Assembly (NCBI GenBank): GCA_965116475.1
Contig: OZ220691.1
Span: forward strand, 512,001 to 576,000
DNA from: Gemmatimonadota bacterium
Lineage (GTDB): Bacteria; Gemmatimonadota; Gemmatimonadetes; Palauibacterales; Palauibacteraceae
Length of the DNA: 64,000 nucleotides
Reading direction: 5' to 3'
Each line of letters begins with the position of its first letter. Within the stretch, counting starts at the first letter, position 1. Below are positions 33,001 to 39,000 of this stretch, piece by piece. Position numbers: made by a program.

Positions 33001-36000
33001 GGACGTCGGCTTCGGCCCGGCGTTCTGGGGATTGCTGCCCGCGTTCCTGTTCGTGGCGCTCGTCGGCACGACCAAGTCGGTCGCCGTCGCGGTCGCCGCC
33101 CAGCGCTTGTCGTGGCGCCGGCCGCGGGCGGTCGATTTTCGCGCCGTGCAGCGTGCCGTGGCCGCGAAGGGCGCCGGGAACCTGCTCGCGGGCCTCGCGG
33201 GAACGATGCCGAACACGCTCAACGTGAACGCCGTGGCCGCCATCGAAGTCACGGGCGTCGCGGCGCGCCGGGTCGGCGTCGCGGCCGGACTCGTCTTCTT
33301 CGTCCTCGCCTTCGTCCCCAAGGCGCTCGCCCTCATTCTCGCCATTCCCGGAGCCGTCGTGGCCGCCTCCATGGCCGTGATCATGGCGACGCTGTTCACG
33401 GTCGGGATGCGCGAAGTCGCGCGGAGCATCGGCTCGAACCCCCGCAACGGCCTCATCGCGGGCGTCTCGTTCTGGACGGGCGTCGCCTGCGAGTTCGACA
33501 TGGTCTTTCCCGCGTTCTTCGCCGAGTTCGCGGGCGGGCTGTTGAGCAGCGGGCTCACGGCGGGGGGCCTGGTGGCGCTGCTGCTCACGGGGCTCACGGC
33601 GCGGCGGAAGCGCCGGCTCAGGGGTACACTCGACATGGCCGAACTGCCGCGGATCCGGGAGTTCATCCAGGCGTTCTCGGCCCGGCACGGGCTGGCGCCC
33701 GTCCTGGACCGGCTCGAAGCCGCGAGCGAGGAGGCGCTGCTGACGCTTCTGGAGTCGCGCGAGGACCCGGAGGGGGCGGAGGGGGCGGAGGGGGCGGAAG
33801 AAGCACCGGCCCCGGGGAGACGTGAGCTTCTTCTGACGGCGAGCGAGGAGGACGACGAGGCCGTGCTGGAATTCAGGGTCGGCGCCGCGGGCAGCGAGGA
33901 ACTCAACCTCCAGGACCGCCTGGCGTGGCTCGAGGCGGACACCCGGGCGGCCGACGTGGAGCAGGAGATCTCGCTCCGGCTGCTCCGGCACCTCGCCTCC
34001 TCCGTGCGGCACCGGCAGTTTCACGACGTGGACATACTCACCCTGCGCGTCTCCGCCGTCCCCGAGCGGGAGTCCTGATGGCCAACGCGAGGCGGCTGCT
34101 CGCTGTCGGCCTGCTCGTTGTCGGCCTGCTCGTCGCGGGCGGATGCGGGGATGCCTCCGACGCAAGCCGTACCCGGGAGTTGTCGCTGGCGCACTTCCTG
34201 CCGGCGGATCACGTCCTCACCGGGGACATGTTCACGCCGCTGGCGGAGAAGCTCTCGGAGCTTTCGAGCGGCAGACTCACCGTGAGACAGTTCCCCGCCG
34301 GGGCCCTGAACTCGTCGGCGCCGGCGCAGTACTCGATCCTGCGGAGCGGCGTGGCCGACATCGCCCTCGCGATTCCCGCCTACACCGCCGACATCTTTCC
34401 GAAGACCGACCTCATCGGCTTTCCCGGCATCTGCAAGACCGCGGTGGAGTGCACCGAGGCCATGCGGCACGCCCGGTCCGTGCTGGAGGCGGAGTACGAC
34501 GCGAAGGTCCTGGGACTGTGGTCCAACGACGCCCCGGTGCTGATCACGCGCGAGACACCCGTGCGGACGCTCGAGGACATGCGCGGGCTCAAGATCCGCG
34601 TGTCGACGCGGAGCCTCATCCCCTTCATCGAGGCGCTGGGCGCCAGCGCGGTCATGCAGCCCGGCACCGTGGTCCATCAGAGCCTGACCACCGGCGTCAT
34701 CGACGGCGTCGCCATCTCCCCGTCGGGAATCGTGGCCTTCCAGCTGCACGAACCCGCCGCCTACCTGACCACCTGGCTCCCCGCGTCCGGACTTCCGTTC
34801 GTCCTGCTGATGAACCGGGGGGTCTACGAGGCCCTCTCGCCCGAGGAACAGGGCTGGATCGACGAAGCCGCCGACGCCTCGCTGTCGATGGCGGGGGCCA
34901 CCGCCTACGCGCGCGCCGGCGCCGACGGCCTGCGGATGGCGGAGGAAGCCGGCGTCGAGATCATCGACCTTCCCGAGAGCGAGATCCGCCGCTTCGAACA
35001 GGCCATCGCCTCCGTCCGCGAGGCCGGCCTCGCCCGCCAGGTAGGCGACATGACCGCCGCCGACGTGATCCGCCTCTTCCGCCCGGCCCCGTAAGCGACC
35101 GCCGGACGGGCCGAGTGCCAATGGCCGTGCCTTCATGACGCTGGGACAACTTCTTGCGTTCAACGTCGCCTTGTTGTTCGCGATCGCGAGCCCGGGACCC
35201 GCCCTGCTGGTGGCCGTCCAGACCGCGCTTCGCTCCGGACGTGCGGCCGGAATCGCCATCGGGGCCGGTCTCGGTGCGATGGCCGCGACGTGGACGCTGC
35301 TCGCCGCGGGCGGGCTGGGACTGGTCTTCGAGAGGCTGCCGTGGCTGTACGGGTCCATGCGGGCCGCCGGGGCGCTCTATCTGTTCTATCTCGCGTACCG
35401 GATGTGGACGAGCGCCGCGAAACCCCCGCCAGCCCGCTCCGCCCCCCAACGGCAGGCCTTCCTCCGGGGGATGATCATCAACCTCTCGAATCCCAAGTCG
35501 GTCCTCTTCGCGGCCTCGTGATCGTCGCCAACCACTTGCTCGTCGAGATCGTGTTCTACACCACACTCGTCTTCTGCATGAGCACACAGGCGGTCGCCGC
35601 CCGGTACATGCGGGCGAGACTCTACATCGATCGCGCCGCAGCCTCGATCCTCGGCGCCCTCGGGCTCTGGATCGCGATTTCGGCCCTCGCGTAGCGCCGA
35701 TTGCCACCCTCACGCCGCCATCGGTCACGCCGCCATCGGCCTGGTCTCGTACTGTCCCCAGAGGACCCAGAGCGCCCAGTCGATGTCCAGCGGGTCGCCC
35801 ATCCAGAGGCTGGTCGCCGTCCAGGGGTCGATCCCCTCCTGACGGTGCCAGTTCCCGAGTCCCGCATCGGCGGTTCGGGGCGCCCTGACGTCCTCGCGTA
35901 CCGGGGGCACCGCCGGTACCACGCGCCCGGCCGGATCGCGGAAGCGCGCCGCGCCCGCCTCCCCCATCTCGACGCGCCAGCCGCCCTCGTGCACGGCCCT

Positions 36001-39000
36001 GTGATGGAACCGGCACAGGAGGATCAGGTTGTCGAGCTTCGTCTCGCCCCCCTCGGACCAGGGGATGGCGTGATGGGCCTGCGTGTAACGCGAGCCGCAG
36101 CCCGGGAAACGGCAGCCCCCGTCCCGGACGTCGAGCGCCTTGCGCAGCCGCCACCCGACGGTGCGCTGGCGGCGGCCCACGTCCAGCACCGAGCCGTCCC
36201 GCCCGCGCTTCACCTCCACGGTCTCCGCGTCGCAGGCCAGGCGCCGGGACGTTCCCGCGGGAACGTGTGAGCCGTCCTCCGTGGCCAGGATCTCGGGGCC
36301 GCCGGCCACGGTGTGGACCACCAGTTGAGCCCTCGCCTCGGCGCGCTCCTCGAGCCACGCTCCGAGCGCGTCGTGGCGCCGCTCCGTCTGACTCGGCCGG
36401 AGCCCGGGCGTCGGCGTCGGCTGGGGCCCGGCCATCGGCCCGGCCGGCGGCGGGTCCGGCTCCCCCGTGGCGGCATCGGCCTCGCGCTCCATGGCGGCGT
36501 CGGCCTCACGCTCCATGGCGCACTCCTGCCGGTGGAGTTCGTCCACGGTGACGTCCAGCGTCTCCACGAGCAGGGCGCCCACCTCGGGCATGAGCAGGCC
36601 ACGGACCTCGTACATCCCGTCGGCCGTCATCCGGACCGTCAGGTGACGGCGGGCCGCCATCTCCGACGTCCCGTCCGGCGCCGCCATGGCGGCCTCCGCG
36701 CTCTTCGCCGCCCGCACGAAACGCTCCACCTGGCTCGCCGTGTGGTGGAGGGCGAACTCGACCAGCCGCGCCTCGTTCTCGGCCGTGGCCATGCGCGTGA
36801 GCGCCCGGACCTTGGACCAGGAGAGCCGCCCCTTCTCCATCTCGGCGGAGGTCAGCGGCAGGTCGGCGAGGCGGCGGGCCGCCCGCAGCCGCTCGCGGGC
36901 CGCGCCGAGGGAGATGCCGGCGCGCCAGTTCAGCCAGTGGGCGCAGGAGCGCCACCCGCTCCAGCGTTCCTCCTCATCGTAGCGGCGCAACAGCGTCAGG
37001 AGCCGATACTGGGCCGCGTCGATGTGGGCGCAGAGTTCGGCGATCTCGTCGCCCACGGGGTCGCCGGCCAAGGCAGCAGGGTGCGAGTCGGCGGAAGGGT
37101 CAGGCGTCTCATGCATGGCGTTCTCATCCGAATCTCAGGGTTCAAAGGGGTACGCACTCATACCCCGATCTTCGGTAAATGTTCGGGTTCCGTCTCAACC
37201 AGGTCTCAACGTCGGTCTCAGCGTCGGTCTCAGCGTCCGGGACGTTCCCGCGGGAACGCCGGAGGCCAGTCAACCGGTGCTGCCGCCCCGCGGGCGTCGC
37301 CGAATCCAGTTGCCGAATCCAGTTGCCGAATCCAGGCGCCGCGCTCGAACGTAGAGTCCTCATCGACCTCACCTTTCCGGAATCCGAGGACGTGAGCGCC
37401 ATGGGCAAGTGGTCGCGCAGGTGGTCGCCGAAGCACTGGCCGAGACGGTATCGCATCGCGCTGAGCTGCTGCGGGGCCGGGGTGGTGGTCGGTGGAGTGC
37501 TGGCCTGGTTCGGGCAGGGCTGGGGGCGTTACGTGGCGCTCGCGGGCGTCATCCTTTGCGTCCTCAGCCTCATGGCCCTCGAAAGCCTGTTGGAAGACGG
37601 CCCCGACAGCCTGTCCGGCGGCGACTGACTCAGTCGGCGCGCCAGCCGACCTCCCTTGCCCATTCGTCGCGGGCGCTGGCGTACGCATCGTAGTCGGCCG
37701 GCGGGCGCTCTTCCTCGGAGGCCGCGCGGCTCCGCGCTTCCTTCATCTGCTCGGCCAGCGGCGGGAGTCCGACGGCCTGGCGGCGCTCCTCCAGCCTCTG
37801 CGGGTCCTCCACGGCGCCCGGCGAGAGATTCCCCTCGGCGTCCCAATCGAACTGCGTCCCGTAGCGTTGCGGCCGGCCCTCGAAGAACCGGATCCGGTCC
37901 TCGAGCAGCGCCGCGTGCCGCGGAGACGCCCTCCCTTCGCGCGCGGCATCCTCGAGGAGGGGGAGCGCGCGCCGGAGCAGGTCGGGCTGCGCGATCGCGT
38001 GCTGCAGGATGATCCACGCCGCGTCCGCCCCCTCGGGACCGACGAGGTCCGTTCCCGGCCACCCGACCGACTCGATGATCCGGCGAAGACGCCGCGCATT
38101 CCGCTCGTGAACGCGGGCCATCCGGGGCTCGTAGCCGCCGAAGAGTTCGCCCGAGTCCACGAGTTCGGCGCGCACCTCCTGGTCCCGACGCACCATCTCC
38201 AGCAGTTCGTCCCTGAGCGTGTCGTTCATCCGTAGCGTCCGGGGGATCCGCGCTATCCCCGTCGAAACGTTCCCGCGGGAACGTCCTCAGGGGGCTCTGC
38301 ATGCGGTGGCGGTCAGGAATCGTCGGGGGGCCGCGCGTTCCTGGCCAGTGTGCGGAGGTGGTCGGCGATGGCCTGCTCGCTCAGCGCCTCGCGCCGCCGG
38401 CACTCGCTCGTCCAACTGAAACCCTTGTAGGCGGAGACACCCCAGGCGGCAGCCGGAAGCCCGAGTATTACGGACACCACCTCCTCACCGTCGTGCTCCA
38501 CCTCGTCCGTGGCGACGTGAACAATGGTCGAAACCATGAGCGCGCTCATTGCGGCATCCAGCACGGGCGCCAGGGCCGATGTCGCACAGGTTCCTTCGGG
38601 CAGCGGGCCGTCCCCCAGCGGAGGCCGGCTCATGAACAGCGCCGAACACCCGCTCGCGAGAACGGCCGACGCCAGGACCAGGCATGTACGGGCCGCAGGA
38701 ACGCTCCTCATTCGTCTCTCCCTTCGCGAAACAGCACTGGGGCCACGGAACAGCCACCGGTGCGCGGAGAATATCCGGCTGAATGGAGAACACCGCCACC
38801 CGGGCCGGCTCCCAGGCAGGCAGCCGGGCAGGCACCCAGACAGACGGTAGGCAGGTTCTTGTGGCGGGTGATATGATGGGCGGCGATGAGACACGACACG
38901 GTGCCGGACACGACCTTCGATCGCGCGGTGGCCGACAGGCTCGAGATGTCTCCCGAGGCCATGCTCGAGCTGGCGCGGGAGGCGGCGGAGATCCTCGTGC

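Follow-up and report, generated by a model that had tools for sequence, protein, structure and literature searches.

The DUF222–HNH repeat and its palindromes

The window, a 64,000-nucleotide stretch of a Gemmatimonadota chromosome, contains at positions 35702–37299 one copy of a repeat of ~1.6 kb. The repeat has six close paralogues (87–100% DNA identity) and one distant paralogue (73%). Two partial relatives also occur, one an internal fragment of 138 bp and the other a solo 5′ end. It encodes a protein of 463 residues, or of 443 residues from the alternative GTG start at 37056 that defined the ORF in the survey's finding. Both domains named there exceed their Pfam cut-offs: DUF222 scores 82.4 bits (cut-off 24.4; residues 29–332) and HNH 34.1 bits (cut-off 21.4; residues 335–376). 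Residues C335, C340, H348, H349, N363, and C368 of the HNH domain are invariant, and its fold matches the HNH domains of McrA, IscB, and Cas9 with Z-scores of 5–7.6. The gene copies inside one genome are recent duplicates.

Table 1 Features of the repeat and palindromes located in the window
Feature	Position	Strand	Remarks
Solo palindrome	18229..18244		Right after a stop codon; orthologous place kept in 3/4 relatives, degenerate in the fourth
Solo palindrome	19321..19336		Between FAD-oxidoreductase and PEMT-like genes; left edge of a species-variable segment
Solo palindrome	19825..19840		Right edge of that species-variable segment
Solo palindrome	23530..23545		4 nt past a stop codon; absent at the orthologous place in 3/3 relatives
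15-nt tandem repeat ccgatggcggcgtga, two units	35710..35739	-	Spans the stop codon; 3′ edge of the repeat
DUF222+HNH ORF	35725..37116	-	463 aa from ATG; ORF list and Pfam
HNH nuclease domain, residues 319–402	35911..36162	-	Pfam; conserved Cys, His, Asn; fold matches
In-frame 16-bp palindrome CGTTCCCGCGGGAACG	36250..36265		Reads (H)-V-P-A-G-T; just upstream of the HNH-encoding part
Putative ParB/Noc/KorB-like helix-turn-helix domain, residues 28–143	36688..37035	-	Within DUF222; contains Ala127; fold, hhalign, weak Pfam, covariation
About four imperfect 12-nt tandem repeats (gacgctgagacc-like)	37188..37238	-	Between the 5′ palindrome and the leader; read from sequence
Second palindrome copy	37243..37258		At the repeat's 5′ border, 126 nt before the ATG
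Solo palindrome	38268..38283		Orthologous place: present in relative G003, absent in relative G011

The survey had described seven such ORFs with an in-frame palindrome, and we find all seven open and carrying CGTTCCCGCGGGAACG within S-H-V-P-A-G-T-S-R-R. The further upstream copy attributed to six of the seven is exact in five, whereas the copy at contig positions 2295072–2296403 has one mismatch (CGTTCCTGCGGGAACG). At 1533323–1534687, where the upstream palindrome was said to be missing, only a 12-nt remnant, cgttcccgcggg, is present, fused near the start codon. The upstream distance of 169–243 nt holds when counted from start to start and equals 153–227 nt between the end of the palindrome and the first base of the ORF. 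The 15-nt tandem repeat marking the 3′ edge was also found again, with five units in one paralogue, and 12-nt tandem repeats lie just inside the 5′ palindrome. In one case, in relative G000, the orthologous site without the gene holds the 5′-border palindrome alone; comparison of orthologous loci between relatives gave neither a clean empty site nor a target duplication for the gene element. The window contains seven exact palindrome matches against 0.18 expected, a number reached in 0 of 100 shuffles.

Selection on the palindrome at the DNA level

We analyzed 77 homologous loci from other phyla, 59 of which are of the VSAET type. A perfect palindrome occupies the gene position equivalent to 36250–36265 in 50 of the 77 loci; of the 27 whose main site is imperfect, 9 carry a perfect one close by. 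Perfect copies upstream of the gene are limited to about five loci. Among the VSAET loci, 45 of 59 sites are perfect palindromes, against 2.75% predicted by the codon usage of the same genes. Paired changes occur at four pairs (1-16, 4-13, 5-12, and 7-10), and well-supported branches of the protein tree force at least seven changes for the CAGCTG-core type. The claim that paired changes keep the site palindromic across relatives and other phyla is thus borne out.

The survey's finding went further in naming DNA symmetry itself as the object of selection. Selection on the DNA is supported by these results, but symmetry is too narrow a description, since particular bases are kept. At the site, Val is encoded by GTT in 71 of the 77 loci (11% over whole genes), Glu by GAA in 62 (29%), and Thr by ACG in 73 (41%), whereas TCG and GCC, which make up 30% of Ser and 43% of Ala codons, are absent. 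Across the five codons of the motif, rare codons have become fixed, and the next six show ordinary mixed wobble use. The commonest site type has an expected probability of 0.00045 from codon usage; symmetric alternatives that codon usage favors (expected 0.005–0.006) occur 0 and 2 times in the 77 loci, and the symmetric core that it prefers, CGGCCG, does not occur. Codon counts therefore indicate that selection on the palindrome favors one particular sequence, beyond symmetry alone.

The amino acid pairs that change together at the DNA level are S/E, P/G, and T/V; VAAAT, which is compatible with a G-C pair, was found in proteins only. V[SP]A[EG]T is present in 84 of 150 family representatives by our recount (83 reported earlier). 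The proposed coupling of S>P with E>G stands insofar as P/G pairs do occur, but it is loose, with the mismatched VPAET no rarer than VPAGT (7 versus 4 of the 77 loci; 14 versus 10 of the 150 representatives). Two plasmid genes behave as described: CGTCCCCGCGGGGACG lies 109 nt upstream of the Rhodococcus gene, and a perfect 16-nt palindrome was not found in the Arthrobacter locus.

Dispersed palindromes in the genome and genus

The palindrome is a dispersed, mostly intergenic repeat and not a property of the gene alone. It is the most frequent 16-mer of the genome: exact copies number 74, and 59 of these lie beyond the DUF222 repeats and fragments. Of these 59, 51 are non-coding, usually a few to 40 nt past stop codons; 11 dispersed sites lie between convergent genes and 2 between divergent genes. 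A 0.65-Mb stretch adjoining the GC-skew maximum is almost without sites. Interspecies alignment blocks end at palindromes, and two of the palindromes enclose a segment that differs in gene content.

Across the genus, whose closest named relatives are Candidatus Palauibacter (Gemmatimonadota), the site is present at 7–74 copies per genome, for the most part intergenic, and close DUF222 homologs (at least 71% identity) occur solely in palindrome-bearing genomes. Palindrome copies follow DUF222 gene number in 17 genomes with a Spearman rho of 0.96, or 0.87 once two sites per gene match are subtracted, although these genomes are related and hence non-independent, and gene-match rows differ from copy numbers. 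The type of the dispersed copies also follows the gene. Relative G004 has no copies of the CGTTCCCGCGGGAACG type and 21 of CGTYTCCGCGGARACG, which is the type that its DUF222 gene carries; intergenic and clustered copies are among them. In five further genomes the dominant type is likewise that of the genome's own gene. Three genomes of the genus without any DUF222 gene still hold 18–34 exact palindromes, and one such genome is a single contig, 96% complete. Among copies with at most two mismatches, exact ones make up the smallest fraction in these three (18/48, 26/48, and 34/59), compared with 40/63, 74/96, and 66/80 in genomes with DUF222. Dispersed copies thus remain even where the protein is missing, and may have another role.

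A ParB-like domain and its covariation with the site

The N-terminal part of DUF222 is predicted to fold like the DNA-binding domain of ParB, Noc, and KorB. The model of residues 28–143 aligns with Noc and ParB DNA-binding domains at VIA-align Z-scores of 8.0–9.6 (rmsd 2.3–2.9 Å over ~100 residues), values that are middling for a helical domain and below the ~13 under which, as the tool warns, a match can mean a common helical arrangement; the best eight matches are every one ParB or Noc. When a domain-only model (pLDDT 95.5) was compared against 48,161 representative chains, only six reached a Z of at least 5, and the top four were a ParB-parS complex (8.5), Spo0J (7.2), and two KorB chains (6.7 and 6.5). 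Foldseek by itself returned no match at E ≤0.001, and a PDB sequence search returned HNH relatives only. HTH_ParB is the commonest additional Pfam family, with weak matches in 8 of 46 members, none reaching the Pfam cut-off (best E-value 0.036). By hhalign, residues 74–141 align to residues 152–224 of the genome's own ParB at 34% identity, with a probability of only 2% and an E-value of 0.023.

Within this putative domain, the residue at the Ala127 column (G-T-[A/T]-A-H-V-E-R) appears to change together with the central base pair of the palindrome. Thr or Val occupies the column in 14 of 20 CA-core rows, where Ala is retained in the other 6; neither residue occurs there in the 69 remaining rows. 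Across seven independent contrasts, the residue shifts in the same direction in 4–5 and in the opposite direction in 0, for a column chosen post hoc from ~450 (sign test p 0.06–0.13). No protein column follows the types of pair 5-12 consistently.

Recognition by the gene's own protein and alternative explanations

The ParB-like fold and the covariation of residue and core favor recognition of the palindrome by the protein's own ParB-like domain, which probably binds the site in its own coding sequence. We propose, at a probability of roughly 0.55, that the palindrome is the recognition site of the DUF222–HNH protein and that the HNH domain acts there. The N-terminal ~115 residues of DUF222 would form a ParB/Noc/KorB-type helix-turn-helix domain that, like its counterparts, would bind the 16-bp site as a two-fold symmetric dimer. 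The site is encoded in frame on V-S-A-E-T (V-P-A-G-T here), directly ahead of the HNH-coding part, with extra copies frequent at gene borders or within the variable linker, and protein and site would co-evolve. Once sites are bound, the HNH domain may nick or cut there or close by. This would turn gene copies and solo palindromes into hot spots where recombination, gene conversion, and shifts in gene content concentrate, and would enable element and site to multiply by a route that we infer. Since a nuclease cutting within its own gene would be self-damaging, the in-gene site may not be cleaved.

An alternative is that the protein binds the palindrome without cutting. Sites upstream of and within its gene would then be operators that limit a potentially harmful nuclease by repression or as a roadblock, with the dispersed copies a by-product or a small regulon. 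KorB, a relative of ParB, represses through palindromic operators. The fold and site evidence applies to this explanation too: KorB-operator complexes are among the best structural matches, the site directly precedes the HNH-coding part, six of the seven local copies have a site upstream of the ORF, and the Rhodococcus plasmid gene lost its in-gene site and retains the upstream one. We nevertheless consider it unlikely. The universal copy is the coding one, the dispersed copies follow stop codons, away from promoters, and the catalytic HNH residues are conserved; regulation alone would also leave the multiplication of identical 16-20-mers and their positions at rearrangement borders unexplained.

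Somewhat less probable still is that the gene merely hosts the site of another factor, be it a recombinase, for example a phage serine integrase with the conserved site as its attB, a different ParB-like or nucleoid protein, or some modification system. Such a factor would suit the palindromes of the three DUF222-free genomes, and likewise the near-empty 0.65-Mb stretch, which a chromosome-organizing protein could yield, and an excerpt of one source describes REP13E12 repeats with a putative prophage attachment site (PMC13061034). Yet it is a DUF222 residue that follows the core type (14/20 versus 0/69), and the dispersed type in each genome equals that of its own DUF222 gene. The sole canonical HTH_ParB gene of the genome adjoins two ordinary parS sites at 1.769 Mb, and a foreign integrase leaves conservation over at least five phyla unexplained.

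We regard as improbable an action as RNA, in which an mRNA hairpin would govern how the nuclease message is translated or degraded, and the intergenic copies would serve as terminators or 3′-end stabilizers. The many non-coding copies past stop codons, 11 of them between convergent genes, would fit, and with GA...TC flanks an 8-bp stem with a 4-nt loop is possible. Pair 7-10, however, covaries (CCGCGG to CAGCTG) although any hairpin would place it in the loop, and the center stays fully self-complementary, which argues that the site acts as double-stranded DNA. Among one-mismatch sites, G-U-compatible mismatches are not clearly preferred over others, GTT...GAA is retained in spite of codon bias whereas stem stability would favor G-C pairs, and a hairpin explains neither an identical sequence at 74 places nor the residue covariation.

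A palindrome without DNA-level function, arising from protein motif, codon habits, and shared descent, could draw on the four of eight pairs that V, A, T, and the second S/P base dictate and on the recent duplication of gene copies within the genome, but it is contradicted by codon usage at the site, by the 45 of 59 perfect sites against an expected 2.75% in proteins only 36–53% identical to the query, by randomized wobble positions in neighboring codons, by independent paired changes recurring on the tree, and by the 59 palindromes outside repeats, and we consider it highly implausible.

Comparison with known systems

DUF222–HNH is a widespread nuclease gene whose palindrome is here also spread between genes along the chromosome. 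In Mycobacterium tuberculosis, 13E12/DUF222 genes are located at inversion breakpoints with an odds ratio of 405 (PMC13157036, in excerpt) and are among the loci most often gene-converted (PMC13061034, in excerpt). The palindrome is similar to parS, a bacterial centromere site: its half-site (C)GTTTC(C/A)G is close to the consensus parS TGTTTCAC-GTGAAACA and NBS TATTTCCC-GGGAAATA as given in an excerpt of PMC7383237, and CGTTTCAGCTGAAACG agrees with parS at 12 of 16 bases. In these consensus sequences, parS and NBS differ at the seventh base (A or C), the same base that separates the two main types of the palindrome.

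A DUF222-HNH gene family with an in-frame palindrome

On its Pfam matches, the gene on the minus strand of the window belongs to the DUF222-HNH (REP13E12-type) family: DUF222 (PF02720) scores 82.4 bits against a cut-off of 24.4 over residues 29-332 of the protein, and HNH (PF01844) scores 34.1 bits against 21.4. Residues C335, C340, H348, H349, N363, and C368 are invariant across 46 DUF222-HNH sequences, and the family as a whole comprises 27,377 representative clusters at E ≤ 0.001. The genome, a single contig of 3,620,669 bases with 69.4% G+C, has nine match rows for the DUF222 family. 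Among control genomes, that of Corynebacterium glutamicum also gave matches to it. A BLAST search of it with the repeat that carries the gene returned six close copies (87-100% identity), one copy of 73% identity, and two partial ones, namely a solo 5' end and an internal fragment of 138 bp.

The seven ORFs listed in the survey's finding are all open, and each carries the palindrome CGTTCCCGCGGGAACG in frame, reading S-H-V-P-A-G-T-S-R-R. An additional upstream palindrome had been claimed for six of the seven; an exact second copy stands in five of these, 153-227 nt before the ORF start, and the copy in the sixth has one mismatch. The ORF described as having no upstream palindrome does indeed have none, and a 12-nt remnant is fused near its start. 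A third palindrome lies 12 nt past the stop codon of the distant copy, which is thus bracketed on both sides. Taken over the seven copies, the palindrome flanks the gene on both sides in one and on the 5' side in five to six. The 15-nt tandem repeat noted earlier at the 3' edge of the repeat is present, and 12-nt tandem repeats are found inside the 5' palindrome.

The linker that precedes the in-gene palindrome has a proline-rich stretch as well as an in-frame duplication (EREADAAMEREADAA). No other part of the family varies as much, and it is here that extra palindromes sit in other phyla. A plasmid collection searched for the gene gave no match at E 1e-20 and two records at 1e-5. Stretches of the gene are covered at 90-99% likeness by contigs from one RNA library; this does not prove that this copy is transcribed.

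Coordinates of the features discussed in the text; positions marked w count along the window, all others along G000:C1, the single contig of this genome
Feature	Position	Strand	Remark
DUF222-HNH ORF	w 35725-37116	-	463 aa
Repeat carrying the ORF	w 35702-37299
Linker before the palindrome	w 36380-36520	-
Palindrome	w 18229
Palindrome	w 19321
Palindrome	w 19825
Palindrome	w 23530
Segment between two palindromes	w 19337-19824		157-aa PEMT/ICMT-like methyltransferase gene, ~0.5 kb
Distant DUF222-HNH copy	2634622-2636106
Palindrome in another gene	707891
Palindrome in another gene	953588
Palindrome in another gene	1214527
Palindrome in another gene	2590203		~42 nt resemble the in-gene DUF222 context
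Palindrome in another gene	2966670
Palindrome in another gene	3271211
Palindrome-poor stretch	2966686-3620669 and 1-14974		~0.67 Mb, by the GC-skew maximum
Second imperfect repeat with palindromes	1597528-1597584
Second imperfect repeat with palindromes	2760504-2760550
Second imperfect repeat with palindromes	1407601-1407640
Second imperfect repeat with palindromes	2892930-2892965
Canonical HTH_ParB gene	1767365-1769170		locus L147
Exact consensus parS	1769086
Second site beside the ParB gene	1769155		CGTTTCACGTGAAACG

Particular bases of the in-gene site are kept across phyla

When one genome per species was scanned with patterns from a 10-sequence alignment, 80 loci were returned; because the patterns include [SP]A[EG]TSRR[LI][AS]C, these loci carry the motif by construction and the frequency of the motif cannot be inferred from them. 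The closest loci are from Candidatus Palauibacter (Gemmatimonadota), and the others, with 35-53% protein identity, belong to Gemmatimonadota, Acidobacteriota, Methylomirabilota/Rokubacteria, Gammaproteobacteria, and Myxococcota. Counts were made on 77 of the 80, the remaining three falling outside the motif pattern: L067 is perfect at both its in-gene and its upstream site, L082 has seven of eight pairs, and in L109 nothing with at least seven pairs was found.

The in-gene 16-mer retains all eight pairs in 50 of the 77 loci, seven in 22, and fewer in five. The perfect sites are of nine types, namely CGTTTCCGCGGAAACG (30 loci), CGTTTCAGCTGAAACG (11), CGTTCCCGCGGGAACG and CGTCTCCGCGGAGACG (two each), and the single-locus types TGTTTCCGCGGAAACA, AGTTTCAGCTGAAACT, CGTCCCCGCGGGGACG, CGTTCCAGCTGGAACG, and CGTTACCGCGGTAACG, the last of which reads V-T-A-V-T. 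That symmetry is maintained through paired changes, as the survey had held, is borne out by pairs 1-16, 4-13, 5-12, and 7-10, each of which occurs in two or three complementary states; the remaining four pairs are dictated by the encoded residues. A quick maximum-likelihood tree was built from 89 proteins; on it, the type with a CAGCTG core requires nine changes, of which well-supported branches force at least seven, the VPAGT type requires four (at least three), and the CGTCTCC type two. Paired replacements also occur among the amino acids at the site (S/E, P/G, and T/V).

Extra perfect copies are found at 30 places in the 77 loci, 21 of them within the open frame. All but one of these 21 share the main frame and read (D/N/H)-V-S-A-E-T-(S/P), which is the 18-20-bp unit itself, with flanks otherwise unlike the main motif; the other extra copies precede the frame by 45-530 nt or follow it by 12-145 nt. 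The type of the extra copies is that of the main site in all but three loci, and a perfect copy lies nearby in 9 of the 27 loci whose main site is imperfect. Five further complete genomes were also compared, and the type of the genome's own gene dominates the sites in four (5/5, 9/12, 23/24, and 7/9), with one mixed.

Codons at the in-gene site of 77 loci and their use elsewhere in the same genes
Codon	Loci with the codon at the site	Gene-wide use
GTT	71	11% of Val codons
GAA	62	29% of Glu codons
ACG	73	41% of Thr codons
TCC	42
TCA	17
TCT	4
TCG	0	30% of Ser codons
AGC	0	21% of Ser codons
GCG	57
GCT	17
GCC	0	43% of Ala codons

The six codons that follow the site have ordinary mixed wobble bases. 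Given V-S-A-E-T, the codon usage of these genes leads one to expect a perfect palindrome in 2.75% of cases, against the 45 of 59 observed (nominal binomial p ~1e-57, ignoring relatedness), and codon bias was rejected as the explanation. A hairpin was rejected as well, in favour of double-stranded DNA: its loop would consist of positions 7-10, yet pair 7-10 switches between C-G and A-T most often. The earlier conclusion that DNA symmetry itself is under selection proved too narrow. Codon usage gives the commonest site a probability of 0.00045, and among symmetric sites favoured by codon usage, CGTCTCGGCCGAGACG (0.0063) was seen 0 times and CGTCTCCGCGGAGACG (0.0052) twice; the particular bases GTTTC...GAAAC are therefore kept. 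A fully self-complementary centre is a requirement of a two-fold symmetric protein dimer on duplex DNA.

A predicted ParB-like domain and a parS-like site

The AlphaFold2 model of the protein has a mean pLDDT of 83. Foldseek alone against the PDB gave no match at E ≤ 0.001, and a sequence profile search of the PDB gave HNH relatives only. When the Foldseek candidates were realigned with VIA-align, residues 28-143 matched the DNA-binding domains of Noc and ParB/Spo0J (Z 8.0-9.6, rmsd 2.3-2.9 Å, ~100 residues) and residues 319-402 the HNH domains of McrA, IscB, Cap5, and Cas9 (Z 5-7.6). The top eight rows were all ParB or Noc, and the Noc domain of 105 residues, whose structure was determined on NBS, aligned with 103 residues. 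Residues 17-150, modelled separately, reached a pLDDT of 95.5. A comparison of this second model with 48,161 representative chains, made without Foldseek, placed Caulobacter ParB on parS first (Z 8.5), followed by Spo0J (7.2) and two KorB entries (6.7 and 6.5), with only six chains at Z ≥ 5 and with SopB, VirB, and P1 ParB ranking lower; these ParB-like values are middling for a helical domain, and the fold alone would not settle the matter.

At the sequence level, HTH_ParB is the commonest additional Pfam family, matching 8 of 46 members weakly (best E 0.036), and none of the 46 exceeds the cut-off for HTH_ParB (PF17762). Compared by hhalign with the ParB encoded in the same genome, residues 74-141 align to residues 152-224 of that protein at 34% identity (E 0.023, probability 2%). 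The N-terminal CTP-binding ParB/Srx domain has no Pfam match even at E up to 10, and just ~27 residues precede the ParB-like HTH domain. On the predicted structure, the DUF222 reader domain would work like those of ParB, Noc, and KorB, and we do not file it as a member of HTH_ParB.

According to Jalal et al. (2020, PMC7383237), the parS consensus is TGTTTCAC-GTGAAACA and that of NBS TATTTCCC-GGGAAATA; the two differ at positions 1 and 6, of which position 6 is read by residue 201 of ParB/Noc. The family sites, CGTTTC(C/A)G-C(G/T)GAAACG, have GTTTC and GAAAC in common with parS, vary between A and C at position 6, and depart from parS at the central dinucleotide and the outermost base. The CAGCTG type is identical to parS at 12 of 16 bases.

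We scanned the protein alignment for columns that separate genes with a CAGCTG core from those with a CCGCGG core. One column, picked after the fact, stands out: Ala127 in G-T-[A/T]-A-H-V-E-R, where the last helix of the ParB-like domain begins. Of the 20 rows with A at the seventh base, 14 have Thr or Val in this column and six keep Ala; none of the 69 other rows has Thr or Val there. By hhalign the column adjoins the Arg of the ParB S-V-R motif, an exact structural match to ParB residue 201 not being established. A Longimicrobiales clade has Thr, as do L090, L108, and L137 separately, and L138 has Val; the nearest neighbours of these genes have Ala and CCGCGG. Across seven phylogenetically independent contrasts, the residue shifts in the same way in four to five, in the opposite way in none, and remains unchanged in two to three (p 0.06-0.13, the best attainable with so few contrasts). 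No column consistently tracks the states of pair 5-12 (T-A, C-G, and A-T) when the Palauibacter clade is discounted.

The genome has one canonical HTH_ParB gene, beside which lie an exact consensus parS and a second site; the latter has the outer C/G of the DUF222 palindrome. Since the chromosome has its own ParB and parS at 1.769 Mb, the 74 palindromes in the genome are not its ordinary centromere sites. The ParB/parS locus is roughly opposite the cumulative GC-skew maximum, which lies near position 0, and the replication origin is for that reason probably at this locus.

The palindrome is a dispersed repeat

Seven exact palindromes lie in the window, against 0.18 in shuffles. The 74 in the whole genome make CGTTCCCGCGGGAACG its commonest 16-mer (the next unrelated 16-mer has 10 copies), and 12 more sites have one mismatch and 10 have two. 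The flanks of the 74 have A at -1 in 59, T at +16 in 58, G at -2 in 51, and C at +17 in 47, and otherwise nothing in common; because these four bases extend the symmetry, we describe the repeat as a 20-bp palindromic unit, GACGTTCCCGCGGGAACGTC.

Outside the DUF222 repeats and fragments there are 59 copies, of which 51 have no open GC3-rich frame across them and are non-coding. Eleven of the 51 stand between convergent genes and two between divergent ones, and many are a few to 40 nt past a stop codon. The other eight lie in further coding regions, in differing frames; the six in-gene copies in the coordinate table read (D/R)-V-P-A-G-T, T-F-P-R-E-R, or R-S-R-G-N-V, and one of them is in the apparent PHP-domain region of a DNA polymerase III alpha subunit. 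The genes punctuated by palindromes in the window are ordinary ones, encoding an FAD oxidoreductase, a PEMT-like methyltransferase, a TonB C-terminal domain protein, an Hsp70-like protein, and a HEAT-repeat protein.

At several places the DUF222-type palindromes are adjoined or separated by a second repeat, the imperfect palindrome ggccagt(c/t)gc(g/c)caactggc(g/c)g, which also makes up the letters between joints in assembled sequencing contigs; this suggests composite clusters like those of REP elements. The palindrome-poor stretch contains one of the 74 copies (that at 3271211), against ~14 expected by length; it was spotted post hoc and covers one flank of the skew peak only. Noc sites avoid the terminus, of which this stretch is reminiscent.

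Palindromes and genes among related genomes

Exact palindromes number 7-67 in 16 of 24 genomes of the same genus and are absent from the other eight, and none of 16 genomes of a neighbouring family has one. Only palindrome-bearing genomes have homologues close to the protein (at least 71% identity). The palindrome count correlates with the number of close gene matches across 17 palindrome-bearing genomes (Spearman rho 0.96, or 0.87 after subtracting two sites per match), with the caveat that the genomes are related, and thus not independent, and that the number of match rows does not equal a copy number.

Four genomes without CGTTCCCGCGGGAACG have distant DUF222-HNH genes, in which V-S-A-E-T is encoded by CGTCTCCGCGGAGACG or CGTTTCCGCGGAAACG. 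In one of the four, G004, the CGTCTCCGCGGAGACG/CGTTTCCGCGGAAACG family of sites has 21 copies and CGTTCCCGCGGGAACG has none; some of the sites are past stop codons, some form clusters of two or three, and one cluster lies by an apparent tRNA 3' end. At positions 225-325 of locus L042 (G004:C254:1-1400), three palindrome types stand within ~60 nt, namely CGTCTCCGCGGAGACG, a CAGCTG-type variant, and CGTTTCCGCGGAGACG; this cluster directly follows a sequence like a tRNA 3' end (ggttcaaatcc...), a typical spot for integrative elements.

Three relatives, G008, G011, and G023, have 34, 18, and 26 exact palindromes, yet the Pfam profile finds no DUF222 domain in them; the G011 genome is in one contig and 96% complete. 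Among sites with at most two mismatches, the exact share in these genomes is 34/59, 18/48, and 26/48, respectively, against 40/63, 74/96, and 66/80 in genomes with the gene. The sequences of these six related genomes fit a decay of the palindromes once the gene is lost, and the three gene-less genomes show that sites can outlive the gene or serve another purpose.

At orthologous places, the window palindrome at 18229 is kept in three of the four relatives examined and degenerate in the fourth, and for that at 19321 one relative keeps it, another has a degenerate version, and two lack it. The palindrome at 23530 is absent in all three relatives compared, with an unrelated short sequence in its place and no duplication. 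Interspecies alignment blocks break off at palindromes. The palindromes corresponding to those that bound the methyltransferase gene segment are 1.45 kb apart in the relative G003, and G003 and a further relative, G006, carry different sequence after the left one. Gene content has been exchanged between fixed palindromes at 19321 and 19825.

Gene order around the DUF222 copy of the window varies between species in a way that a single insertion cannot account for, and interspecies comparison of this rearranged region gave no clean insertion site. Three places have the element in a relative and not in this genome, where the first is without a palindrome, the second shows a solo palindrome whose outer flank is shared, and the third is replaced by unrelated DNA; no common target was found among these three empty sites. 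On the strength of the orthologous and empty-site comparisons, the element moves or is lost with its 5' edge at the palindrome and leaves no simple footprint. Palindrome-to-palindrome joints in assembled contigs from four runs cannot be taken as a sign of excision, the shorter side of these joints being 20-22 letters and indistinguishable from other copies of the repeat.

Proposed mechanism and significance

The palindrome carried by the gene is probably the site recognized by the encoded DUF222 domain, because four independent lines, drawn from sequences and a predicted model, converge on it: nucleotide-level conservation, likeness to parS and NBS, the ParB-like fold, and the residue that tracks the core. 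After binding, the HNH domain would nick or cut, leading to recombination, gene conversion, and spread. The main alternative is that the sites act as operators, through which the gene would regulate itself. Nicking or cutting is favoured because the HNH catalytic residues are conserved, because sites in the genus lie at rearrangement borders, and because the family is described as marking inversion breakpoints (PMC13157036) and gene-conversion hot spots (PMC13061034) in Mycobacterium tuberculosis.

Building on recognition and cutting, we tentatively propose, at a probability of roughly three in ten, that DUF222-HNH genes are self-propagating "site-and-enzyme" elements in which a ParB-type reader and an HNH cutter sow their own in-frame, centromere-like palindrome chromosome-wide, each copy serving as landing pad and recombination hot spot. 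If so, these elements would be the HNH/ParB counterpart of REP elements and RAYT transposases, and would account both for the punctuated, rearranging gene arrays of Candidatus Palauibacter and for the inversions and gene conversion centred on REP13E12 in M. tuberculosis. Action of the nuclease at the sites would also explain why a perfect palindrome is the commonest 16-mer of the genome, and would add a second enzyme class to REP-like repeat biology.

DUF222-HNH is a very large family without known function, which includes the REP13E12 repeats of M. tuberculosis. It gains three concrete items here: a palindromic site, (C)GTTTC(C/A)G, a predicted ParB-like HTH reader, and a candidate specificity residue. 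The gene is probably a rare case of a protein whose recognition site is encoded in frame in its own gene, with site and protein changed together across phyla, down to paired amino-acid replacements. The interest is high, as a large family without a known function becomes a set of direct experiments.

Comparison with known systems

Like HNH homing endonuclease genes, the DUF222-HNH gene is a multi-copy HNH gene whose position varies between genomes, and a long specific site is implied. Unlike homing genes, which interrupt their target and thereby render the host copy immune, it has an intact site within the gene and at its border; the empty sites compared showed no split site and no clean insertion footprint, and the gene has no intron or intein context.

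The nearest described relatives are the REP13E12 repeats of M. tuberculosis and other Actinomycetota, which share the DUF222 and HNH Pfam architecture, the multi-copy dispersed repeats of ~1.4-1.6 kb, and the tie to recombination, and from which the present case differs in its host, a member of the Gemmatimonadota. In M. tuberculosis these repeats are reported at inversion breakpoints (PMC13157036) and as gene-conversion hot spots, and the family is described as being without a defined function and as holding a putative prophage (phiRv1) attachment site (PMC13061034). Our search of the literature on the DUF222/REP13E12 family, with subscription journals and supplements outside its scope, found no paper that reports in-frame palindromes, a ParB-like domain, or solo sites dispersed in the genome.

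With ParB-parS, Noc-NBS, and KorB-operator systems, the DUF222 protein shares an HTH DNA-binding domain of the same fold in the predicted model. Noc has dozens of sites per chromosome, and the palindrome here has dozens of copies. The putative site, like parS and NBS, is a perfect 16-bp palindrome with the half-site GTTTC(A/C), and putative specificity turns on the same base position as in ParB and Noc (PMC7383237). Unlike the proteins of these systems, the DUF222 protein is without the N-terminal CTP-binding domain, is fused to an HNH nuclease, and falls under the HTH_ParB cut-off. The centre of its palindrome is GC in place of the CG of parS and NBS, the outer base is C, as in CGTTTCACGTGAAACG, and the site, unlike parS, lies within the coding sequence of the protein itself.

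The arrangement differs from REP/RAYT systems in its enzyme, a ParB-like HTH with HNH in place of a Y1 HUH transposase, and in its unit, a perfect 16-20-bp palindrome without a loop that also occurs in frame inside the gene and forms close doublets in only three cases. As with REP elements, one short palindrome of lineage-specific sequence is present in tens of copies, mostly intergenic or after gene ends. As in REP/RAYT systems, the gene is bordered by the repeat, on both sides in the distant copy, and the copy number tracks the gene, with copies apparently decaying where the gene is missing.
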